From Candidatus Yanofskybacteria bacterium (GTDB taxonomy: Bacteria; Patescibacteriota; Minisyncoccia; 2-02-FULL-40-12; GWA2-44-9), in contig JACPNL010000019.1 of NCBI GenBank assembly GCA_016185505.1, positions 2,885 through 66,884 on the forward strand: a stretch of DNA of 64,000 nt. Direction: 5' to 3'. Made by a program: the position numbers and the translations under genes. Below, one piece after another: positions 1 to 25,298 of this stretch (positions are counted from its first letter, which is position 1; every line of letters starts with the position of its first letter). Below the pieces are notes generated by a model. The model searched no databases. It was not told the origin of the DNA and saw only the letters and a list, made by a program, of their open reading frames with translations.

Positions 1-84
1 TTTGTTGAGATTATTAAACCATATATATTGCCATCAATGAGATACAAGTTGGGAATATTAGGAACACAATTGCCTAAAAAGTAA
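1..84 (+). CDS. 3' end of an intron-encoded LAGLIDADG homing endonuclease (partial; starts upstream of the window)
   Basis: Frame-1 translation FVEIIKPYILPSMRYKLGILGTQLPKK* matches the C-terminal ...IGPYIIPSMIYKL... of the two LAGLIDADG ORFs at 518 and 1422, implying a further upstream intron in the 23S gene. Confidence 0.45.
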   Translation, partial: FVEIIKPYILPSMRYKLGILGTQLPKK

Positions 85-414
85 TGGAGGCGTTCATCAA
101 GGTCGGCTAGCTTCGGATGGACATCGAAGCGATAGCGTAAAGGCAAAAGCCGGCTTAACTGCAAGGCGGATGTGCCGCGCTTCGAAGGGCAACCTTCGAA
201 GATGTGTGGAGAGGGCCTTCTTATGCTGGATTATGAGGTGCTTGCACTTCGTAGCTTTAGCGAAGAAGTGAGATGCGAAAGCAGGACTTAGTGAACCGAC
301 TCTAGCTCGTAGGAGCGGAGAAGATCATCAGATAAAAGCTACCCCGGGGATAACAGGCTGGTACCACCCGAGCGTTCCTAGCGACGGTGGTGTTCGGCAC
401 CTCGATGTCGGCTC

Positions 415-1296
415 AAATTGGGCCGTACTCGAAGTAATTCGAGTTGGTAAGTTGGATTCCAATTTGCAACTTCAGCTAAAAACGGTGAAGTCATAATAAA
501 GTCAACCCAGATGTGTTATGATAATACCGTGGGAAGTAAGAGAAACTTTATACAGTATGCTATTATCACAAAGACAAACAGATATACTCATTGGTACAAT
601 TTTAGGCGACGGCCATTTGGAGAAAAATGGCCACGGTGTTCGCTTAAAAGTGGGTCATGGTAAAAAACAAACAGAATATACTTATTGGAAATATTTTGAA
701 ATGAAAAACTTAACTCCAAGTCCGCCACGATCAGTTAAAGAGTTTCATAAAAGCAGAAAAATGTTTGATGAAAGTGTGCATTTCGCAACTTTTTCTGACC
801 TCGAGCTAGTAAAATGGCGTGATTTATTCTATGAAAGTGGCGTTAAAGCAATACCCAAAAATATAAGCGATATTCTAAGGTCGCCCTTATCGTTAGCAGT
901 TTGGTATATGGACGATGGCTATAAGAGAAATGACTGCAATGCCTTAAGAATAAGTACAGATTCTTTTTCTCTTAATGATCATCACTTATTGGTCAATTGT
1001 TTGGAAAAGAATTTTGAAATTAACGCCCAGATCCATAAAAAAGACAAGACCAATAATATTTATATACCCAATAAATTTACTAAAAAGTTTTGTGATATTG
1101 TTAGACCATATATTGTTGATAGTTTATTGTATAAAGTTTCTCTTGCCCCGTAACGACTTTGTTCTTAATGAACAGGATAATTAACGATGAAGCGAAAGTC
1201 GATGGTTAATTATAAAAGGCTGACACCCCCTAATTAAATTAAACTTAGTGGGTGAATGTATAGTCTACACTTCTAGTGATAGAAGATTATTGTGCG
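415..1296 (+). other. Group I intron 1 in 23S rRNA (after GATGTCGGCTC) carrying a LAGLIDADG ORF
   Basis: Exon sequence breaks at 414 and resumes at ~1299. Intron core motifs are shared with the other introns: AATACCGTGGGAAGT, CCCCGTAACGAC, TATAGTCTACAC...TAGTGATA. Boundaries are approximate. Confidence 0.6.
518..1153 (+). CDS. LAGLIDADG homing endonuclease (two-motif type)
   Basis: Motifs LIGTILGDGHL and AVWYMDDGYK. The ORF lies inside 23S intron 1. Confidence 0.8.
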   Translation: MIIPWEVRETLYSMLLSQRQTDILIGTILGDGHLEKNGHGVRLKVGHGKKQTEYTYWKYFEMKNLTPSPPRSVKEFHKSRKMFDESVHFATFSDLELVKWRDLFYESGVKAIPKNISDILRSPLSLAVWYMDDGYKRNDCNALRISTDSFSLNDHHLLVNCLEKNFEINAQIHKKDKTNNIYIPNKFTKKFCDIVRPYIVDSLLYKVSLAP

Positions 1297-1329
1297 GCTT
1301 ATCCTGGGGGTGAAGAAGCTCCCAAGGGT

Positions 1330-2187
1330 GAAAGAACAAACTCGCCCATCTAGAAGAGATTCTAGATAAAATAACCGACTAATAACGGTGGAGTCGTAAT
1401 TAAATTTATGTTAAAATTAATATGAATTTAAACGATAATACCGTGGGAAGTTTAAGGCAAAAAATAGATTTAAGCGATAGGGAAATGAGTGTTTTAATCG
1501 GCACCATTCTTGGCGATGCATATATTGAACAGTATCCCAAAGATGCTCGGATTAGTATTATGCATTCACTAAAACAAAAAGAATTTGTCGAATGGAAATA
1601 CAAAGAGTTGGGAAGATTCGTGAAAATGAAACCAATGCAGTCAGAATACTTTGATCCCAGATATGGTAAGAAGTATTTTTGGCGGAGGTTTCAGACTAGA
1701 AGATTTCCGGAATTTAAGGAATTGGCCGATATTTTCTACGTTGGAAAAACAAAAATTATTCCCCGTACTATCAGCCAAATATTAACACATCCATTAGCTC
1801 TCGCGGTTTGGTATATGGATGATGGCGGAAGAAGAAAGGACTGTCACGGAATGTTTTTGAACACATTAAGCTATTCAAAACAAGAACAGATAGTGCTACA
1901 AAAATGTCTCCTAAAAAACTTTGGAATTCACACAAGAATCCATTGGGTTACTGATGGATTCAGATTGTATATCCCAACGGCAGATGCTAAAAAATTCAGC
2001 ACTCTTATCGGTCCATATATTATCCCATCCATGATCTATAAATTACCTTATAACCCCGTAACGACTGAATCCGCCGGAATATGGCGGAGGAGATAGATTG
2101 AAATAATATCTATCAAACGTCGGGCCCGTCTCTCATGGAGAGCGGAGCAAGGTATAGTCTGTGCTCTTAGTAATAAGAGAAACACAC
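1330..2187 (+). other. Group I intron 2 in 23S rRNA (after CCCAAGGGT) carrying a LAGLIDADG ORF
   Basis: Exon breaks at ~1329 and resumes at ~2188 (GGCTGTTCGCC). Contains CGACTAATAACGGTGGAGTC and the TATAGTCTGTGCTCTTAGTAATAAGAG core. Confidence 0.55.
1422..2096 (+). CDS. LAGLIDADG homing endonuclease (two-motif type)
   Basis: Motifs LIGTILGDAYIE and AVWYMDDGGRR. Paralogous to the ORF at 518. Confidence 0.8.
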   Translation: MNLNDNTVGSLRQKIDLSDREMSVLIGTILGDAYIEQYPKDARISIMHSLKQKEFVEWKYKELGRFVKMKPMQSEYFDPRYGKKYFWRRFQTRRFPEFKELADIFYVGKTKIIPRTISQILTHPLALAVWYMDDGGRRKDCHGMFLNTLSYSKQEQIVLQKCLLKNFGIHTRIHWVTDGFRLYIPTADAKKFSTLIGPYIIPSMIYKLPYNPVTTESAGIWRRR

Positions 2188-2237
2188 GTTGGCTGTTCGC
2201 CAATTAAAAAGCTACGCGAGCTGGGTTCAGACCGTCC

Positions 2238-3018
2238 GATTACAAATCATCGGGGCGGCTCTGTCAAGTAATTGACAGATGTTAAATCGACTCATATCGG
2301 AGAAGTCCTATTGCTTCAAAACCAACCGAAGCAAGGGTAATTCCGAGGGAAGTCTTCCGTTCAAATTTTTGGAAAAGAAAAACCGCGATTATTTACTCGC
2401 GGGCGTGGTCGGCGATGGGCACTGTGCAATAGAAAGCATTATGCCACTCATATAAGCACCATTCCACGAAGAAGAAGGCAGTAAAGAAGAAGGCAATGAT
2501 AGATGGAAAAAATCTGCAGCATTCTCTGCGTCTTTATCAGATAAAGAAAAACTAGCCAGCTCTTTTTTGTCGATACTGATAGTAAATTTATAGTTCATCT
2601 TTCGTTGCCTATTGTAAATATTAAGAACTTGAATCAGGGTATTAAATTATTTAAATTTTGTCAATTAAAAATTGACTCCAAAAATTTGAACGGAATGACC
2701 CCGTAGAGACTTGTTGAGTTAAACTCAACGGACGAAATCTATAAATTTCGTAATATGTCGATCAACCATTGTTTTGCATTGGGAAACTCTAAATTCAAAA
2801 CCCTAAACTCTAAACAATATCAAATATCAAAATCTAAAACTCAAAACTTTTAAGATTTTAAATTTGTAATTTGTTTAGAAATTAGAAATTAGGATTTAGA
2901 AATTCCACTGCTTTGCAGTGGCTGGTGGTATAGTCCATACTCTTAGTAATAAGAGATGTTCAGAGTTCAGATTTCAGATATCGGACATCCGATATCTGAT
3001 TTCCGATGTCTGATTATG
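2238..3018 (+). other. Group I intron 3 in 23S rRNA, ORF-less and filled with low-complexity repeats
   Basis: Exon breaks after GACCGTC (2237) and resumes at CGTGAGACAG (3019). Shares the TATAGTCCATACTCTTAGTAATAAGAG core, but no LAGLIDADG ORF remains; instead it holds AT-rich tandem repeats and the palindrome CAGATATCGGACATCCGATATCTG. Confidence 0.5.
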
Positions 3019-3081
3019 CGTGAGACAGGTTGGTCCATATCTGGTGCGGGCGTTAATACTTGAGAGGAGTTGTCCCTAGTA

Positions 3082-3965
3082 AAGTATTGCTACTTCACGG
3101 AGTAATCCGTGATGACAACGCGACTAATAACGGTGGAATCTTAATATTTCTGGATCTGTTGATAGCCATAATTTCAATCGGTCCGTAAATTGTGGTACAA
3201 TTTACTTGAGGACCAGAAACTATTAAGACAATACCGTGGGAAGTCGATCTAAAATTGATCTAGCGTATATGGCCGGTTTTCTTGATGGAGACGGAAGCTT
3301 GATGTTCCAACTCAAGAAACGCAAAGACGGCAAAAAGAAATGGCGGTTTATGTGCACTGTCTGTTTTTATCAAGACAGCAGGCACGATAAGACACTTCAT
3401 TGGATAAGAAGCAAGCTAAATATTGGCTATGTGTCTAAACGCAATGATGGAATGTCAGAGTTGAGAGTAAATGGGTTTAAACAAATCCGAGATATTCTCA
3501 ATGACTTATTGCCATTTGTGAAGTTTAAAAGAGTCCAGGCAAATGCTATGCATAAAGCCACGACCCTTTTGAGCAAAAAGCATAGTGGTCAACTTAATAA
3601 AAATGAACTTATTAGATTAGTTGATTATATTCTAGAAATTCAGAAGAAGAACTATGTAACAAAACGCAAGAAAGGCAGAAAAGAGTTATTATCAATTTTG
3701 GGTTTGACCCCGTAACGACTTGTTCTCGCCAACGGCGGGACGGATAGAAGTTTTTTAGCTTCTATAATATGTCGCTGACCAATGGAGGTTGGAGATTAGA
3801 GATTGGATGTTGGATTTATTCTAACTTCTCATTTCTAACCTCTAACTTCCGTTGGTTAAAGATATAGTCTACACCCGTAGTGATACGGGATAATCAATTC
3901 GCAATTCGCGGCATTCGCATATCATTTGTAGATTTGCATTATGTTGCGAGCGGAGAGAGCATGTG
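3082..3965 (+). other. Group I intron 4 in 23S rRNA (at CCTAGTA^CGAGAGGACC) carrying a LAGLIDADG ORF
   Basis: Exon breaks at ~3081 and resumes at 3966 (ACGAGAGGACCGGG). Contains CGCGACTAATAACGGTGGAATC, CCCCGTAACGAC and a CTAACYTC repeat block at 3781-3860. Confidence 0.55.
3236..3715 (+). CDS. LAGLIDADG homing endonuclease (single-motif type)
   Basis: Motif LAYMAGFLDGDGSLMF. Starts directly after the conserved intron motif ATACCGTGGGAAGT (GTG start, or ATG at 3269). Confidence 0.7.
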   Translation: MGSRSKIDLAYMAGFLDGDGSLMFQLKKRKDGKKKWRFMCTVCFYQDSRHDKTLHWIRSKLNIGYVSKRNDGMSELRVNGFKQIRDILNDLLPFVKFKRVQANAMHKATTLLSKKHSGQLNKNELIRLVDYILEIQKKNYVTKRKKGRKELLSILGLTP

Positions 3966-4242
3966 ACGAGAGGACCGGGATGAACGAACCTCTGGTCTGC
4001 CAGCTGTTCTGCCAAGAGCAGCGCTGGGTAGCTATGTTTGGTTCTGATAAGCGCTGAAAGCATATAAGCGCGAAGCAGGCCTCAAGATTAGGTATCGGGA
4101 CGCAAGTCCCAAAATTTCCTTGTAGATGACGAGGTTGATAGGGCTTAGGTGTAAGCGCCGTGAGGCGTTGAGCCGAGAGCTACTAATAAATTTACTTTGA
4201 GTAATTTGTCGCTCCTCACTTTTGTTCGGAGCTCTTCCTACA

Positions 4243-4460: not shown

Positions 4461-4574
4461 CTTGGTGGCAATGCTGACGTTGTACTACCTGATCCCATTC
4501 CGAACTCAGAAGTAAAAGACGTCAAGGCCCATGATAGTCAGCATTAGCTGGCGAAAGTAGGTAGCCGCCAGACC
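4461..4574 (+). rRNA. rrf: 5S rRNA
   Basis: CTTGGTGGCAATGCTGACG...CCCATTCCGAACTCAGAAGTAAAAGACG...GGCGAAAGTAGGTAGCCGCCAGAC aligns with the bacterial 5S consensus. It is flanked by the inverted repeats CTGGAAAATAAAAATTATTGG / CCAATAATTTTTATTTTTATCCAG, which would form a processing stem. Confidence 0.8.
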
Positions 4575-4671
4575 AATAATTTTTATTTTTATCCAGAAAG
4601 CCCGTGAGTTTTTAACGGCTCCAGAGGACCTCCGCCTAAAACTCCCGCTTGAGTGAAGCAGTTCACTCGAG

Positions 4672-4806
4672 CCCCATTCCGAACCCGGAAGCGAAGTCCC
4701 GCACCAAATCCGCCCCCTTTCTGAATGGCGGTCAGCGGAAAAATTTGGTGCGGGATGAAATTCTCCAAGGCCCATGATAGTCGGCATCAGCCGGCGAAAG
4801 TAGTCC
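4672..4806 (+). other. Partial second 5S-like segment interrupted by a ~60-nt hairpin insertion
   Basis: CCCCATTCCGAACCCGGAAGCGAAGTCCCGCACC [insert with stem CCCGCACCAAAT/ATTTGGTGCGGG] AAGGCCCATGATAGTCGGCATCAGCCGGCGAAAGTAG parallels the 5S at 4461-4574 but lacks helix I. Confidence 0.4.
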
Positions 4807-4936
4807 CGATTTTCTTCCTGTCAAAGGCGGATTAGAAAATCGAGGATCCCCGATTTGTCATCTGCGCTTTGCGCAGGACAAATCGGGAGTAGCTGCCCTA
4901 TACTGACCGCGACTTTTTAGTTGTGTACATTAGTTG

Positions 4937-7859: not shown

Positions 7860-10800
7860 ATGTCCGCAACTGTCCGCGTATTTATAATGCGGAAACTATT
7901 CTCAAAATATGGAGCTACCCATTTGGAATCAGACGCGCCTAACCTTGTTCAAGTGCAACTTGATTCTTATAATTGGTTTTTACGCCACGGGCTCAAAGAA
8001 TTGCTGAAGGAGGTTTCGCCCGTTGAGGATTGGACCGGCAAAGAACTTGAGCTTCGTTTTTTGGATTACAAGCTGGACGAACCTAAATACGACGAAAGAA
8101 CATCCATAGATAAGAACATTACCTTTGAGGCGCCACTGAAGGTAAAAGTCGGTCTCGTCAATAAAAGTACGGGCCAGGAAAGGGAGCAGGAACTTTTTAT
8201 CGCGGATTTTCCATTAATGACCCAAAGGGGGACTTTCATCATAAATGGAATTGAAAGGGTGGTTATATCCCAGCTTATCAGAAGCCCGGGGTCATTTTTT
8301 TCATTATCCAGATCCAGCCGGTATAAGAGATTTTTTGGGGCCAAGTTAATTCCGTCCAGAGGCGCCTGGCTTGAATTTGAGACGGAGTATAACGGTGTTA
8401 TCTCGGTGAGGATAGACAGAAAAAGAAAGGTGGCCGCTACCGCGCTTTTGCGCGCGTTCGGCATTAAAGATGACGAAGAAATAAAAAAACTTTTTGCCGA
8501 TGTTGACACTGATCCAAATGTAAAATATATATTGGCGACTATTCTTCAGGACCCGTCTTCTAATGAAGAGGAAGGTCTGATTGAACTTTATAAGCGTATC
8601 AGGCCTGGAGATCCAGCTACTCCTGACAACGCCAGGCAGATGATCCACAATCTTTTTTTCAACCCATCCAGGTACGATTTGTCTAAGGTCGGCCGCTTTC
8701 GACTAAATAAAAGATTCAACGAGAGCTTGGATATAGAAAAAGCCGAGAATCGGGTGTTAAGGCCCAAGGACATAGTGAATCTTCTGCGGGAGATAATTCG
8801 TTTGAACAACGATCCGTCGTCGGAACCGGATAACATAGATCATCTTGGCAACAGAAGGGTCAAAACATTGGGGGAATTACTTCAGGATCGTTTAAGGATC
8901 GCTTTTGCCAGGATGGAAAGAAATATAAAAGACAGGATGAGTACGATGGATCTGGCAATGGTTTTGCCGTCTCAACTTATAAACGCGCGACCTTTTGTCG
9001 CGGCCTTGAAAGAATTTTTTTCGTCAGGGCAACTATCTCAATTTATGGATCAAGACAATCCTCTTTCAGAGCTTGAGCACAAGAGACGTCTTTCCGCGCT
9101 GGGCCCCGGCGGTCTTACCAGAGAAAGAGCCAGTTTTGAAGTTCGCGATGTCCATCCGTCACACTATGGGAGAATTTGTCCTATAGCTACGCCCGAGGGC
9201 CCTAATATAGGTCTTGTGGGACATCTTGCTTTGCATTCAAAGATCTCTGATCTTGGTTTCATACTCACTCCGTATAGAAAGGTTGCAAAGGGCAGGGTTA
9301 CCGATGAGATACTATATATGGATGCCATAGAGGAGGAGAGGTATAACATTGCTTCAGCCGGCGCCTCGATGGATAAAGAAGGCAACCTTACCGGCGACAA
9401 GGTAACGGCCAGGATCAAAGGAGAGCCAGGCACGGCCGAACCGAAAAACATCGATTATATAGACGTTTCTCCGAAGCAGCAATTCTCGGTATCCACATCT
9501 CTCATTCCTTTTCTTGAACATGATGACGCCAACAGGGCGTTGATGGGTTCTAATATGCAGAGGCAAGCCGTCCCTTTGATAAAACCAGAATCGCCCTATG
9601 TTGGTACGGGTCTTGAATCGAAAGTTGCCGTTGACTCGGGCGTTATGGTTGTTGCACCGGATAACGGAACTGTAAAAGAAGCGGATGCTTCTCATATCGT
9701 CCTTGAATCCGATAAAAAGAAATACGAGTTCAAACTTCTTAAATTCGCCAAGTCAAATAAATTCACATCAATAAATCAGAGGCCGATTGTCTCCAGGGGC
9801 GACAAGGTCAAGAAGGGAGACGTTCTTGCCGACGGTCCGTCAACAGAGAACGGAGAATTGGCCCTTGGCGCAAATCTCGTTGTCGCGTATATGTCTTTCG
9901 AAGGAGCAAATTTTGAGGACGCCATCGTTATCTCCGAGCGTCTGATCAAAGAGGATGTATTTTCAAGCATCCATATCGAGGACTATGTGAGCGACGTGAG
10001 AGAGACTAAGCTTGGGCCCGAGTTAACCACTTATGATATTCCTAATGTCGCTATGGAGCGATTGAATGATCTGGATCCTGACGGAGTGGTGAGAATAGGC
10101 GCCGAGGTCAGATCGCAGGATATTCTGGTGGGCAAGATTTCTCCGAAAGGAGAAAGCGACCTTACGGCCGAAGAGCGATTGCTGCGAGCCATATTCGGTG
10201 AAAAATCCAGAGACGTTAAAGATACTTCGCTTCGTCTTGATTACGGAAAGCAGGGCCGGGTCGTGGGCGTGAAAACATTCTCCAGAGATGAAGGGGACAA
10301 GCTGGATGTTGGGGTTATTAAAAAGACCCAGGTTTCTGTGGCGCAGTTGAGAAAGGTTCAAATAGGAGACAAGTTGGCTGGACGTCACGGCAATAAGGGA
10401 GTCATATCGGTCATACTTCCTGAAGAAGATATGCCGTTTATGGAGGACGGCACTCCGGTTGATATCGTTTTATCGCCTCTTGGCATTATTTCACGTATGA
10501 ATATCGGCCAGGTGCTTGAGGCTCACTTGGGCATGGCGGCCAAAAAACTTGAATATAAAGCCGCGACTCCTTCTATGGCCGGTCCGAGCGAGGATATGAT
10601 AATGGAAGAGTTAAAGAAAGCCGGCTTTCCCGTTGATGGAAAGGTCCAGCTTTACGATGGAAAGACGGGACTGTCTTTCGCGCAAAGATCCACTGTGGGC
10701 ATTACCTACTTTATGAAGTTGAGCCATATGGTTGAAGACAAGCTCCACATGAGGTCTATTGGTCCATATTCTCTTATCACCCAACAGCCGCTTGGAGGCA

Positions 10801-18101: not shown

Positions 18102-19004
18102 ATGGCAAAAAAACAAGACGATTCAAAATCAAAACAGGTCGATCTGACTGTTAAAGAACTTCAGGAGAAATACGGCGAGGGGTCAATAATGAAGCTTGGC
18201 GAAGCCAAGAAAGTAGATATCGACGCCATATCGACTGGCTCCATATCTTTGGATTTAGCATTGGGAGTAGGCGGCATACCCAGGGGTAGGATAATAGAAA
18301 TCTACGGGCCGGAAAGTTCCGGTAAGACAACTTTGTGTTTACACATAGTATCTGAAGCTCAAAAGCTTGGCGGTATTGCCGCTTTTGTGGACGCAGAGCA
18401 CGCGCTTGATCCGGAATATGCAAAAAAAATAGGAGTTAAAATAGACCAGCTTTTAATTTCCCAGCCTGATACGGGAGAGGGTTTGCAGGCGCGCTTGATG
18501 TCCCACGCGTTAAGGAAACTTACGGCTATTGTGGCCAAGTCCAATACCACCGTAATTTTTATAAACCAGTTAAGAATGAAGATAGGCGTTATGTTCGGTA
18601 ATCCCGAAATTACCACCGGCGGTATGGCTTTGAAATTTTATTCTTCGGTTCGTATTGAAGTCCGTCGCGCGGCTCAAATACAATCAGGAGAAAAAATAGT
18701 GGGGAATAGGGTGAAAGTAAAAGTGGTTAAAAACAAAGTCGCGCCCCCGTTCAGAACTTGCGAATTCGATATTCTCTATAATGAGGGCATCTCAAAATAT
18801 TCCGATGTTGTTAACGCCGGAGTTAAATACGGCATAGTGGCTAAAGCGGGAAGTTGGTACAACTACCTGCCTGCGCAGGCAGGTGGCGAACCAATAAGAT
18901 TGGGTCAAGGTATAGACGGCTCGAGATTGTTTCTCAAAGATAATCCCAAAGTGGAGCGGGAAATTCTAAACAAAATTAAGGAGGCCGCAACGCGCGAGGC
19001 ATAA
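18102..19004 (+). CDS. recA: Recombinase RecA
   Basis: GPESSGKTT Walker A and full-length RecA homology. Confidence 0.95.
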
Positions 19005-19046
19005 AATATCGAAATTTCGATATGTCGATATTTCGAAATATCTTTT

Positions 19047-19346
19047 GTGGCGACCATTTCTAAATTTGAGGACCTGATTTGCTGGCAAAAAGCCAGAGAG
19101 TTGGCCAATTTTATATTTGATATTACAGATAATGCTCAATTTAGGGACTTTGATCTTAAGCGCCAGATCAGACGTGCGGCAATTTCACCGATGTCTAATA
19201 TCGCGGAAGGTTTTGACAGAGGTACGAGAGGAGAGTTTGTTGATGCCTTGTTTATTGCTAAAGGAGAAGTTGGTGAAGTAAGATGCCAACTTTATATTTC
19301 AAGCGATAGGCGATATATCGAAATGTCTAAATATCGAAATTTCTGA
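19047..19346 (+). CDS. Four-helix-bundle protein of the 23S-rRNA-IVS / Avd-like family (TIGR02436-type)
   Basis: MATISKFEDLICWQKARELANFIFDIT...IRRAAISPMSNIAEGFDRGTRGEF matches the family signature (DL.vWQKA.EL; R.A.Si..NIAEG). It is flanked on both sides by ATATCGAAAT palindromic repeats (19003-19046 and 19312-19345). Confidence 0.7.
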   Translation: MATISKFEDLICWQKARELANFIFDITDNAQFRDFDLKRQIRRAAISPMSNIAEGFDRGTRGEFVDALFIAKGEVGEVRCQLYISSDRRYIEMSKYRNF

Positions 19347-19350
19347 CCTA

Positions 19351-19380
19351 TTGACAAGGTATAGGGCGGTATGCTATACT
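19351..19380 (+). promoter_or_regulatory. Strong sigma70-type promoter TTGACA-N18-TATACT driving the downstream non-coding RNA block
   Basis: TTGACAAGGTATAGGGCGGTATGCTATACT. The predicted transcription start is near 19387. Confidence 0.55.
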
Positions 19381-19386
19381 GAAAGG

Positions 19387-19530
19387 GATGCTGGAGGATG
19401 GCTAGTCACGCTTCACGGCTGGCGGCCTGCGAAAGCAAGTCCTCGCAGCAGGTGTTTGAATCGTCGGGCAGATACGGCGTTCGTCAGGGTGGGGGTTCTG
19501 GGGACTCCCGGGGCCTCCACCCGCCCTTTT
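19387..19530 (+). ncRNA. Unassigned ~140-nt structured small RNA with its own intrinsic terminator (SRP-RNA-like features are speculative)
   Basis: GC-rich against an AT-rich genome and no credible ORF. Contains the GNRA hairpin UGCGAAAGCA and ends in the terminator GGGTGGGGGTTCTGGGGACTCCCGGGGCCTCCACCCGCCCTTTTT. Confidence 0.3.
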
Positions 19531-19589
19531 TCAATCTTGGCCTCGCGAAATTGGTTCATCCTGAGCTTGTCGAAGGGTGGCTCAATTCC

Positions 19590-19950
19590 GCGAGGCCTGG
19601 AAACATTGAGAAATGGGAGATGTCTCCGGGGTAAAGGTCGAAAGACCCTCCGGAGTAGGTCTGGTTCAAGCCCAGACCCAGTGCCTCGCCGCGTTCTTTC
19701 CGGCACAAGAGGGGTGGAAGTCGGGAAGCAGTACTGTACTACTGTTGCCATCCCGTACCTAGTTGAATCAACCGGGGGAACGATGTGCAGATCGTTCCTC
19801 CTCGCTACCAGGTTTATCAAGTAGTGGTTCAAGATCAGCTTGACAAGTCTGGTAGCGAGGCCGATAAAAAGTCGCTGGATGGCGACTGGCTGGCCAGTAA
19901 CAAATCTGGTCTTCGACGTTCGGGGTTCGTGTTGGAGCCTCGGCCTCGCT
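19590..19950 (+). ncRNA. rnpB: Candidate RNase P RNA (divergent type-A-like)
   Basis: Motif matches in the collinear order of E. coli M1 RNA: GAAAGACCC (cf. GGAAAGUCCGGGC, P4 5' strand); CCAGUGC; AGAGGGGUGGAAGUCGGGAAGCAG (cf. AGGGUGAAAGGGUGCGGUAAGAGCG); GCUGGCCAGU (cf. GCUGGCCUAG); ACAAAUCUGGUCUU (cf. ACAGAACCCGGCUU, J18/2 plus P4 3' strand, complementary to AAGACC). Possible P1: CGCGAGGCC / GGCCUCGCG. Boundaries are approximate. Confidence 0.35.
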
Positions 19951-19986
19951 CGTTCTTTCAATAAAAACTTGTGTGTGGACGGCTGT

Positions 19987-20068
19987 GGACGCTTAGCTCA
20001 GCGAGAGAGCGCCGGGGAGGTCTTAGTGACCGAACTGGAGGTTGGAGGTTTGATCCCTCCAGCGTCCA
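19987..20068 (+). ncRNA. tRNA-like element (perfect 7-bp acceptor stem plus T-arm; no canonical anticodon arm)
   Basis: GGACGCT...GGAGG-TTTGATC-CCTCC-AGCGTCC-A. A D-arm is possible (GCTC/GAGC), but the ~34 nt between the D and T arms do not form an anticodon stem. Confidence 0.35.
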
Positions 20069-20135
20069 TCAACCAAACCAAGCTCCGCTTGAGCAGCACT
20101 GCTCGCGGAGCCAGATACCATTCGGTATCTGACCA

Positions 20136-20170
20136 GTCCCGCATCGCATGGTGCGGGGTTTTTGTTTTTA
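20136..20170 (+). terminator. Rho-independent terminator closing the ncRNA block
   Basis: CCCGCATCGCATGGTGCGGGG followed by TTTTTGTTTTT. Confidence 0.6.
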
Positions 20171-20474
20171 ACGAGAGGTCTGGCCGCGGGTATATGGCAT
20201 CAGCGCCATATACCTTGCGAGTTTGACGGCTTGGGCTATCATTCGCTGATGGGAACTGCAAAGTTTGTTCCTTCGGGATGCGCCGATCTTGAATTGAGAC
20301 GTGACAAATTTCCGCAAAAAGCGGGTATTTTTATAATCAACTCTATTTATGTTGTCCTGACAGAAAATACATTGCATGTTTAGAAACAAGCGACAAGAGA
20401 CAAGATACCAAGTAAGCAAGTAAGAATAATTTACGGTTTCACTACTTGGTCGCATGTCCCTTGTTTCTTGGTTG

Positions 20475-24248: not shown

Positions 24249-25298
24249 CCCCATTTTCTCTTTCACTTCAGTGAGGGTTTTGTCGGCGAGTTGTCGGGCT
24301 TTTTCTTCAGATGACTCAAGTATTTGGATAACTTTCTTTGGGTCATCTTCAAACTCCTTTCTTTTTGCCTGAAACGGTTGGAGGAAATTAACTACGACTT
24401 CGGCCAGGTCATTTTTGAAGTCAACGTAGGATTTGCTTTCGTATTGGTTTTCTATTTCCTTAATACTTAATACTTGCTTCTTAATACTATCTTGGGAAAG
24501 TAGGTGATAGATGGTGAGCAAATTTGAAATTGCCGGCTTTTCTTTCTCGTCGTATTTAACTTCTTTGTCGGAGTCGGTAACGGCTTTCTTTGTTTTTGCT
24601 CGAATAATATCCGGAGTATCAACAAGGAAAATACAACTTTCGTCTCCCGCTTGTCCTGAGCTTGCCGAAGGGGTTTTAGACATCTTCTGTGTCGGATCTT
24701 TGAGCGACATTATGCGGGCACCCTCTGCTAAATGCGGCTTTACTGGCTCAAACACCTCACCAAACATAGAATTGAATTTCTTGGCGATTTCATTGGTTAG
24801 ATCTATGTGGGGTAACTGATCTTCACCGACGGGGACGAGATTTGATTTATAAATCAAAATATCGGCCGCCATTAAAACCGGGTAATCTAACAAGCCCACA
24901 TGATTATATTTAGGCGCTTTGGCTAGCTGTTCCTTATATGTTGGCAGGCGGTCTAACCAACTGACCGGCGTAACCGTATTGAAAAGCCACGCGAGTTCCG
25001 TGTGTTGGGGGACTTTTGACTGGCGGATTAGCAATGCTTTGTCGGGGTCAATTCCCGCGGCGAGATAATCCAAAACCACATCCATTATCTGCTGTTGGTA
25101 TGTCTTGGGATCGTAAGGGGTAGTGATTGCGTGGTAGTCAGCAACCATAAAAATTACCTGTGCGGGCTTTGCTGTGCCCTCCGAAGCTTTATGCGAAGGA
25201 GGGTCCTGCAATTCCATCCAATTCTTTATCGCCCCGAGATAATTGCCAAGATGTAATTTCCCGCTCGGACGGATGCCCGAAAATACTTTTAATTTCAT
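24240..25298 (-). CDS. trpS: Tryptophan--tRNA ligase
   Basis: Class I HIGH-type motif (GKLHLGNYLG) and a KMSKT motif, with typical TrpRS N-terminus and length. Contains a small low-complexity insertion, SASSGQAGDES. Confidence 0.85.
   Translation of the reverse strand: MKLKVFSGIRPSGKLHLGNYLGAIKNWMELQDPPSHKASEGTAKPAQVIFMVADYHAITTPYDPKTYQQQIMDVVLDYLAAGIDPDKALLIRQSKVPQHTELAWLFNTVTPVSWLDRLPTYKEQLAKAPKYNHVGLLDYPVLMAADILIYKSNLVPVGEDQLPHIDLTNEIAKKFNSMFGEVFEPVKPHLAEGARIMSLKDPTQKMSKTPSASSGQAGDESCIFLVDTPDIIRAKTKKAVTDSDKEVKYDEKEKPAISNLLTIYHLLSQDSIKKQVLSIKEIENQYESKSYVDFKNDLAEVVVNFLQPFQAKRKEFEDDPKKVIQILESSEEKARQLADKTLTEVKEKMGLL

Follow-up and report, generated by a model that had tools for sequence, protein, structure and literature searches.

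A modular RNA family with covarying helices in groundwater candidate phyla radiation bacteria and its resemblance to rRNA operon signals

The large structured bacterial RNAs GOLLD and ROOL are several hundred nucleotides long, fold elaborately, carry their own transcription signals, lie beside a tRNA or tRNA-like gene and are patchily distributed. Here we describe an RNA that shares this size, structure, possession of its own signals, tRNA-like neighbor and patchiness. It occupies a GC-rich block at 19351-20170 in a 64,000-nt stretch of the genome of Candidatus Yanofskybacteria bacterium (the window; contig JACPNL010000019.1, positions 2,885 to 66,884 of the forward strand). This organism belongs to the candidate phyla radiation (CPR, or Patescibacteria), which holds a large share of bacterial diversity and whose non-coding RNAs are barely known. 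Unlike GOLLD and ROOL, the RNA is built from repeated modules whose inserts can be exchanged, and has no single conserved multi-stem core; it matches neither model at E<=10, and searches of phage, plasmid and viral-contig collections returned nothing similar to it. We conclude that the block belongs to a family that is confined to the CPR, has covarying helices and is missing from Rfam 15. Its sequence signals indicate, in addition, that 19351-20170 is one independently transcribed, plus-strand, non-coding multi-domain RNA gene.

The order of these signals recalls a second described system, the rRNA (rrn) operon. In E. coli, one boxB-boxA-boxC set stands ahead of 16S and another ahead of 23S (PMC10250234; PMC2724277). 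The boxA consensus is GYTCTTTAANA in gamma-proteobacteria (PMC5725501), and a functional Legionella boxA reads GTTCTTTAAAA (PMC7862264). E. coli boxC, UCUGUGUGGG, lies 18-19 nt past boxA and provides the 5' strand of the leader-trailer helix around 16S rRNA (PMC10250234).

The block is flanked upstream by recA (18102-19004) and an Avd-like 23S_rRNA_IVP gene, and downstream by a convergent rpsR-ssb-rpsF operon. A Candidatus Yanofskybacteria MAG encodes a protein identical (100%) to this RecA. It opens with a sigma-70-type promoter on the plus strand, TTGACA-N18-(TG)TATACT (19351-19380), which scores 11/12, has the TG extension and is nearly identical in two relatives (L104 and L108; L numbers are our handles for loci). 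It closes with an intrinsic terminator on the same strand (20135-20170), a hairpin at 20135-20160 followed by a T-run that abuts the stop codon of rpsR (20168-20455, minus strand). GC content is 0.52-0.615 across 19300-20200, compared with 0.37-0.46 on either side. The open reading frames of the block (157, 78 and 182 amino acids, and others) have no Pfam match, and pairwise comparison with the closest relative, L104, shows that they are not preserved. An earlier note on this DNA, made from the letters alone, had drawn attention to the promoter, the base composition, the final terminator and the lack of coding capacity, and in all of these it proved correct.

The structure of the block is equally marked. 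The plus strand (791 nt) folds to -375.8 kcal/mol, with z = -11.7 relative to shuffled sequences, as against z = -7.7 for the minus strand, and a scan found 10 terminator-like sites where shuffles lead one to expect 1.9. The long stems listed in the note were recovered as inverted repeats (19539-19562/19574-19597, 19800-19821/19839-19860 and 19774-19787/19788-19801), and a GNRA hairpin is indeed present (GGTC-GAAA-GACC, 19636-19647). So is the internal terminator that it had placed after the first part, a 16-bp stem at 19487-19522 followed by T5. The note's division of the block into three parts thus survives for the internal terminator, the tRNA-like element and the end terminator; its middle part, which it took to be RNase P RNA, does not, as set out below. 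The block is unique within the 64 kb, none of its parts being found again.

The middle of the block consists of two copies, a and b, of a three-strand module, both on the plus strand. Strands (1) (CUCGCG...) and (2) (...CGCGAG) pair into hairpin P, which is about 20 bp long. An extension of strand (2) (GCGAG+GCUGG...) pairs with strand (3) (...CCAGC+CUCGC), 45-115 nt downstream, and so closes a variable structured insert, which we call the cargo. Strands (1) and (3) both complement the GCGAG of strand (2) and therefore compete for it. In module a, hairpin P (19539-19597) is an inverted repeat of CCUCGCGAAAUUGG and CUCAAUUCCGCGAGG with a mini-palindrome, CCUGAGCUUGUCGAAGG, at its tip (19560-19576). 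The closing stem (19590-19689) joins strand (2), GCGAGGCCUGG (19590-19600), to strand (3), CCAGUGCCUCGC (19678-19689), around cargo a, which includes the GGUC-GAAA-GACC hairpin; 3 nt further on stands a boxA-like motif, GUUCUUUCCGG (19693-19703). An inverted repeat, GGGGGAACGAU-GUGC-AGAUCGUUCCUCC (19774-19801), forms a hairpin between the modules. In module b, the hairpin (19800-19860; CCUCGCUACCAGG with CUGGUAGCGAGG) is of the same type as one in L104, and the closing stem (19854-19950) is a perfect 11-bp pairing of AGCGAGGCCGA (19854-19864) with UCGGCCUCGCU (19940-19950) around cargo b.

Covariation supports both pairings. In a trimmed alignment of 19 modules, on which all the pairing statistics were computed, 88.7-89.2% of cells are paired for 1:2 and 2:3, compared with 25-42% in slid controls; 16 of the 21 pairs show changes on both sides, and none of 500 shuffles reached the observed values, but these statistics are inflated because strand (3) was picked by a script for its complementarity, and the base of hairpin P was fixed by the search pattern. 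The extension of the closing stem covaries (GCUGG/CCAGC, GUUGG/CCAAC, GUCUGACAA/UUGUCAGAC, GCCGUAGGU/ACCUACGGC and ACUGAAGUG/CACUUCGGU), and all five variants of strand (3) (CUUGC, UUCGC, CUCGU) keep G.U pairing to GCGAG; strand (1) is mismatched in two modules. Cells with G.U number 28-33, against 14 with A.C, an indicator of strand sense. Because the fold z scores, the model scores given below and these counts all favor the plus strand, we take it to be the sense strand. When the two conformers were forced, their energies differed by a median of 1.0 kcal/mol, with conformer B the lower in 9 of 19 modules. Judged by these computed energies, hairpin P and the closing stem are predicted to be an isoenergetic strand-exchange toggle.

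The family was recognized by eye, from a hairpin, CCTCGCGAAATT...AATTTCGCGAGG, shared with L088 and another, CGCGAGGCTGG...CTCGCGCGTTCTTT, shared with L085. A scan of metagenome contigs with the pattern CTCGCGAAATT-N15-45-AATTNCGCGAG then yielded 46 loci. Some 30 of these, chiefly from the Rifle and Hainich aquifers, have in common features that lie outside the pattern: a highly conserved promoter (TTGACAGATTTTGTGGGAGGAGTATRAT or the window type), the 5' domain, the closing stem, GTTCTTT and two 3' hairpin-terminators. Members are 350-800 nt long. A covariance model of hairpin P trained without the window found module a at 19538-19601 on the plus strand with 50.5 bits (E = 7.7e-12), compared with 29.9 bits on the minus strand. 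It detected nothing else significant in the 64-kb window and had no match at E<=1 in 40 recA loci (L001-L040), which come chiefly from other phyla and include a few distant CPR. In both window modules, strand (3) complements strand (2) and is followed by a GUUCUUU-type motif. We found the family only in Paceibacteria/Yanofskybacteria-type groundwater CPR bacteria. It can now be searched for by pattern and by covariance model, with its punctuation conserved and its cargo variable.

Other routes to relatives gave less. A RecA-based scan of GTDB genomes was dominated by universal RecA motifs, the best match being 64% identical, and exact-match look-ups of the SSB and IVP proteins of the window came back empty. 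Syntenic loci (rpoC-ftsK-recA-gap-rpsR/ssb/rpsF) were obtained through RecA homologues of 75-80% identity. In the loci of the RecA scan and in the gaps of the first synteny loci, nhmmer found no homologue of the block. We found no account of such an RNA in the literature.

Ahead of the modules lies the 5' domain (19387-19486, plus strand), in which helix P1, formed by GAUGCUGGAGG (19387-19397) and CCUCGCAGCAGG (19441-19452), encloses variable hairpins and is followed by a second hairpin. The promoter and P1 are common to the window, L104, L095, L103 and L112. MAFFT and RNAalifold aligned the 5' domains poorly, and the covariation of P1 comes from direct reading alone: UGCUG:CAGCA is replaced by CGCUG:CAGCG in L119 and by UCCAG:CUGGA in L128. 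The terminator-like hairpin that follows, T1 (19487-19532, plus strand), has its 16-bp stem succeeded by CUUUUUC, and its sequence GGGGUGGGGUUCUGGGGAYUCCC..CUCCACCC is kept in L095, L103 and L112.

The motif that follows the modules gives the family its resemblance to rrn operons. GTTCTTT stands 1-3 nt past strand (3) in 10 of the 19 modules, with near variants in most others, and it is kept even where a hairpin intervenes (L103 and L135), which favors a role that depends on its sequence over that of a plain U-tail. The motif resembles both the boxA consensus and the Legionella boxA. Module b (GTTCTTTCAAT) agrees with the boxA consensus at 9/11 positions, module a (GTTCTTTCCGG) at 7/11 and relatives at up to 10/11 (GTTCTTTATTA, GTTCTTTAATG), this consensus being gamma-proteobacterial and possibly not that of the host or its relatives. 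After module b, the boxA-like GUUCUUUCAAUAAAAAC (19952-19968) is directly adjacent to a boxC-like UUGUGUGUGG (19969-19978, both plus strand). The window thus presents the order stem (19940-19950), boxA-like motif, boxC-like motif and helix, the last closing at 20073-20082. This leader-trailer-type helix (19968-20082, plus strand), in which CUUGUGUGUGG (19968-19978) pairs with CCAAACCAAG (20073-20082), encloses the tRNA-like element and occurs in the minimum-free-energy fold of 19965-20085. A stronger long-range helix is predicted in L111, L120 and L122, where the GGUGUGUGG strand (UUGGUGUGUGGRGGAG) and its partner CUUCUCCCACACC enclose a cargo of about 200 nt, and in L085 the unit of boxA-like motif, G-rich strand, cargo and trailer is present twice. 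No leaders of this kind precede the true tRNA genes of the window.

For comparison with authentic rRNA leaders, we searched through homologues of the window's homing endonucleases and obtained L145 and L146; look-ups of a protein encoded near 5S and of a homing endonuclease gave 1-kb contigs only. L146, a stand-alone 23S operon from a distant member of the Parcubacteria, shows the layout expected of a real operon: a hairpin is accompanied by CCUCUUUAAGG and by a leader-trailer helix of 20 bp. L145 ends inside its 23S gene, and none of the fetched loci contains a 16S gene. The likeness to rrn leader and spacer signals extends to the strong promoter, the stem followed by a GYUCUUU-type motif, the UGUGUGG-type strand that opens a long-range helix, the repetition of the set before each enclosed RNA, the tRNA-type element within the transcript and the tandem terminators at its end. 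There are also differences: the RNAs enclosed here are variable structures of 45-200 nt and not 16S or 23S; the boxA-like and boxC-like motifs are separated by 0-10 nt, compared with 18-19 nt in Enterobacteriaceae; and a strong intrinsic terminator precedes the first boxA-like motif.

The 3' part of the RNA holds a tRNA-like element (19987-20068, plus strand), which scores 44.2 bits against the Rfam tRNA model (gathering score 29; E = 6.5e-8) and is the single real Rfam match in the block. Its acceptor stem is 7 bp long, its D arm pairs GCUC with GAGC, its T arm pairs GGAGG with CCUCC, and its variable loop measures 5 nt. The earlier note had rightly seen the acceptor stem and the T arm; the anticodon arm that it had called unfoldable can in fact fold, in an aberrant way. 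Its sequence, CCGG-GGA-GGUC-UUAGU-GACC-GAA-CUGG, gives a 4-bp stem, a symmetric 3x3 internal loop in which tandem G.A pairs are possible, a second 4-bp stem and a 5-nt loop. The anticodon region spans 19 nt, as against 9 in the Rfam model, and lacks the 5-bp stem, 7-nt loop, U33 and readable anticodon of a tRNA. The third acceptor pair is A3-U70, not G3.U70, and CCA is not encoded. ARAGORN, a program proposed in the note, reported no tRNA at default settings, with or without introns, and at lowered thresholds produced only forced, mutually contradictory models. Neither ARAGORN nor Rfam found a tmRNA, and there is no tag reading frame. We also considered T-box, K-turn and archaeal bulge-helix-bulge intron readings of the arm and rejected them, the 3x3 loop being symmetric and not staggered.

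As read from the sequence, G18-U55 and A19-U56 could form between the D loop (AGCGAGA) and the T loop (UUUGAUC), the latter pair replacing G19-C56; this swap may compensate the elbow, a hint that the L-shape is under selection. Among all the family loci examined, the tRNA-like cargo is limited to the window. It cannot decode and is most likely a processing handle or a tRNA mimic, a candidate natural example of either, with a possibly compensated elbow. The tRNA-like parts of other RNAs (MALAT1 mascRNA, the tRNA-like domain of tmRNA and the YrlA tRNA-like module) likewise keep the acceptor/T/D framework and have lost anticodon function. The window element resembles these handles in lying on the 3' side of a longer non-coding RNA, which suggests ends defined by RNase P. 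It differs from them in being a full cloverleaf with an extended, closed "anticodon" arm, and from tmRNA and YrlA in having no G3.U70, tag frame or nearby Ro/Rsr gene. We also observed 92% complementarity between the first 12 nt of the transcript, GGAUGCUGGAGG (19386-19397), and CCUCCAGCGUCC (20056-20067), the 3' strand of T arm and acceptor stem. Such pairing could make the whole RNA circular or compete with the cloverleaf, or the match may be chance in GC-rich DNA. Beyond the tRNA-like element lie two further hairpins, GCUCCGCUUGAGCAGCACUGCUCGCGGAGC and CAGAUACCAUUCGGUAUCUG (20082-20131, plus strand), which the note had also anticipated; the first is kept in L093, L104 and L108.

Comparison among family members separates constant from exchangeable parts. 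L104 has the same recA-IVP context as the window and a promoter almost identical to it. The two align only at the promoter and P1, in T1 along its 3' strand, at the base of each hairpin, at strand (3) and its GTTCTTT, and at the last hairpin; unrelated sequence replaces the cargo, the hairpin tips and the tRNA-like region. Cargo b is homologous to the module 1 insert of L112, with 61% identity against a background of about 50%, and with conserved blocks. That module has an a-type hairpin and is located after gyrA, yet carries a cargo b-like insert. Similarly, the module b insert of L104 is 74% identical to the insert of L088. These sequence relationships indicate that inserts are re-assorted between loci. 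The islands that house the family recur at two positions, recA...rpsR/ssb/rpsF and gyrA...methyltransferase, with single cases after jag and after proS, and the same two syntenic positions are used in genomes whose RecA proteins are about 70-77% identical.

We propose that the block may be a stable-RNA mini-operon built on rrn-type signals, a model to which, on this analysis, we give an even chance. Its layout would copy the order of the rRNA operon: a boxB-like stem, a boxA-like GUUCUUU(A/C)A and a boxC-like UGUGUGG that pairs with a trailer beyond the next cargo. RNA polymerase on the unit would be modified through NusB/S10 at the boxA-like motif (candidate target GUUCUUUCAAUAA). Long helices would bracket each cargo, aid its folding and then undergo RNase III-type cleavage, and RNase P together with RNase Z would release the tRNA-like element, setting the 3' end of the upstream RNA. 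The outcome would be several small stable RNAs from one transcript, with the 5' domain possibly freed as a short RNA at the internal terminator. Were this so, RNA biogenesis assisted by Nus factors and leader-trailer helices would not be reserved to ribosomal RNA, and the expression and shaping of small stable RNA sets in streamlined genomes would be explained. A wider and distinctly more tentative idea is that Yanofskybacteria-type CPR might employ the signals of rRNA operons as a general chassis on which exchangeable small structured RNAs are expressed and folded. The strong promoter, the boxA/boxC-like motifs and the leader-trailer helices with their built-in strand-exchange toggle would be its signals; the cargoes, including the non-decoding tRNA mimic, would pass from recA to gyrA islands, or the reverse, and from one genome to another. 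If true, this would define a new modular class of RNA genes and a second natural client of the rrn antitermination/chaperone machinery.

Several observations, besides the inflated pairing statistics noted above, weigh against the mini-operon model. GUUCUUU is degenerate in some members (GUUUUUC, UCAUUUUUU) and absent from L108 and from module 2 of L112, and it might be no more than a U-rich tail. The motifs are putative boxA and boxC sites, compared here with those of other lineages. The helix around the tRNA-like element is weak, with 9 bp and two bulges and z scores of -2.5 (19965-20085) and -1.0 (19951-20090). The internal terminator precedes the boxA-like motifs, and where a member has a single module the motif is found just upstream of the final terminators, with little left for antitermination to act on. 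Finally, the block is missing from the close relatives L091, L093 and L081, with sufB or a transposase in its place in some, and is therefore dispensable.

The reading preferred in the earlier note, that the middle segment is rnpB, accompanied by an unusual RNA partner on its 5' side and by a tRNA-like trailer, was examined with a permissive Rfam scan of 19250-20300 (E<=10, 4227 families) and a scan of the whole window at gathering score. The segment does have some likeness to RNase P RNA: a similar size range, GC-rich structure, GNRA hairpins, a tRNA-like substrate close by and short strings like the RNase P conserved regions (CRs) in the expected order, among them an AAGACC (within 19636-19647) complementary to a GGUCUU at 19908-19913. 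Yet no RNaseP_bact_a, RNaseP_bact_b or archaeal RNase P model matched in the permissive scan, and none did window-wide. Although AAGACC and GGTCTT are complementary as strings, AAGACC is already paired within the local GNRA hairpin, so that the claimed P4 fails; the proposed CR-I string, GAAAGACC, is made up of the loop and 3' strand of this same GGUC-GAAA-GACC hairpin, and GGUCUU aligns to GGCCUU in another hairpin of L112. Strands of the CR-I type (GAGGAAAGUCC) and CR-V type (ACAGAA...GGCUUA) are absent from the block, which has no CR-I to CR-V core. Instead of the core conservation expected of RNase P, the segment consists of two modules of a multi-locus family, varies among close relatives and has non-homologous interiors in the window and L104. 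The rnpB reading is refuted at the level available here, we regard it as scarcely credible, and a false rnpB call is thereby removed. The permissive scan likewise returned none of the other families that the note had proposed (tmRNA, SRP, 6S, GOLLD and ROOL), nor any group I or II intron, OLE, T-box or riboswitch, and Rfam matched no family in the homologous region of 28 related loci. The note's fallback, an unassigned large structured CPR RNA, stands where its first choice fell, and becomes more specific as a covarying family.

Three further explanations bear on the same features. The block could be a pile-up of selfish palindromic DNA in an intergenic island, of the REP/BIME (repetitive extragenic palindrome/bacterial interspersed mosaic element), RPE (Rickettsia palindromic element) or MITE-like (miniature inverted-repeat transposable element) kind, with no function at the RNA level. 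Like REP/BIME and RPE, the units are GC-rich palindromes after housekeeping genes that vary between strains, with one mini-palindrome in coding sequence. Close relatives differ in their presence, inserts are shuffled among loci, the island also gathers the IVP cassette, hicAB and a transposase, and the mini-palindrome CCTGAGCTTGYCGAAGG is found at hairpin tips in both orientations and within trpS. We nevertheless consider this unlikely. The units differ from such elements in having their own conserved consensus promoter and oriented U-tract terminators, which border them in all contexts, and in carrying a tRNA-like element whose acceptor/D/T framework is intact. They show strand asymmetry in fold energy, model score and G.U versus A.C counts, compensatory changes preserve their helices, and they keep to the same two syntenic positions despite the divergence of RecA. 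The block could also be what is left of a second, decaying rRNA operon after deletion of the rRNA genes, namely leader, spacer, tRNA and trailer. This would suit the rrn-like signal order and a D arm that resembles those of spacer-type tRNAs; we think it quite unlikely. Its helices are upheld by compensatory change and are not eroding, its promoter is near-consensus and conserved, units persist at two syntenic loci across several diverged lineages with streamlined genomes, and inserts free of any 16S or 23S fragment are exchanged as intact structured units. Least probable of the three is a cis-regulatory leader, a riboswitch or attenuator whose 5' domain senses a signal and controls read-through at T1, with the modules as terminator/antiterminator switches. 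The sequence does contain a promoter, a structured leader and a strong terminator, and the modules share with such platforms three strands, mutually exclusive pairings of similar energy (1:2 versus 2:3) and a U-rich tract afterwards. But there is no co-directional gene downstream to regulate, the unit terminating against convergent rpsR; no known aptamer matches in the window or its relatives; the would-be sensor parts are the most variable; and the "terminator" loops are structured inserts of 45-115 nt, unlike those of ordinary terminators.

Several observations concern the islands themselves. In L127 (reverse strand, about 2396-2815), and also in L111, L120 and L122, a non-coding unit of about 400 nt with promoter and terminator at its borders and no Rfam match lies directly upstream of the family RNA, making the recA-rpsR gap of these loci a 1.5-kb island of non-coding RNA genes. 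Some 900 nt downstream of the family RNA, L112 has a genuine SAM-I riboswitch (814-914, minus strand; 63.1 bits), which is served by a promoter of its own and precedes a small open reading frame. Within the related RNA block of L085, a 25-codon open reading frame, MIIIVIDGIVFTSRKAAQEYKAGKR (7860-7945), resembles the NUMOD1-type DNA-binding motif of homing endonucleases; it is possibly the remnant of an endonuclease once inserted into the RNA gene. hicA/hicB genes stand between or beside RNA units in some islands (L096/L119 and L116/L118), and an rve-family transposase is encoded in L081/L083 (7613-8656), in L081 at the expected position of the RNA promoter after the IVP cassette. In several members, the window included, hairpin P has at its tip the 17-nt mini-palindrome CCTGAGCTTG(T/C)CGAAGG, which is inverted at 1207-1224 of L104. 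With one mismatch it also occurs inside the trpS coding sequence of the window (24655-24671, minus-strand gene; peptide ...PSASSGQAG...). Three matches were found where 0.08 were expected, which suggests a tiny mobile or recombinogenic hairpin element.

The Avd-like 23S_rRNA_IVP cassette (19004-19346, plus strand; PF05635, E = 2.8e-26) lies outside the RNA gene and is bordered by 32-nt AT-rich inverted repeats (ATATCGAAATTTCGATATGTCGATAT...; 19011-19042 and 19312-19343). Its gene is truncated at the 3' end, encoding 99 amino acids as against 154 in the intact copy of L081 (7033-7580), apparently through deletion between cgatat repeats. The cassette is like an rRNA intervening sequence, yet stands outside rRNA; L108 (reverse strand, about 140-215) retains the repeats only. 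The absence of a repeat copy of the block in the 64 kb and of a reverse transcriptase between recA and rpsR means that the Avd-like neighbor does not make the locus a diversity-generating retroelement, and we rejected this possibility. Such an element is likely present in L146, where a bAvd gene lies beside a reverse transcriptase (1038-2378), about 3.4 kb upstream of the 23S-5S operon; there is no 16S gene directly upstream of that operon. We also rejected terminal inverted repeats around the block (19355-19368/20204-20217), the right arm of which falls inside the conserved C-terminus of S18.

Three other features of the window are unusual. The RecA it encodes has 300 amino acids, compared with 335-345 in relatives, as the result of a 41-residue in-frame internal deletion that includes the Walker B strand; judging from this sequence it is probably inactive, unless the deletion is an assembly artefact. 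After the 5S gene (4461-4573), a degenerate, interrupted 5S-like sequence, ...CCCATTCCGAACCCGGAAG...CAAGGCCCATGATAGTCGGCATCAGCCGGCGAAAGTAG, lies at about 4670-4810 and is not reported by Rfam at gathering score. The 23S rRNA gene (1-4193) is split between model positions 2636 and 2652 by an insertion of about 3.5 kb that contains three LAGLIDADG homing-endonuclease open reading frames (518-1153, 1422-2096 and 3236-3715).

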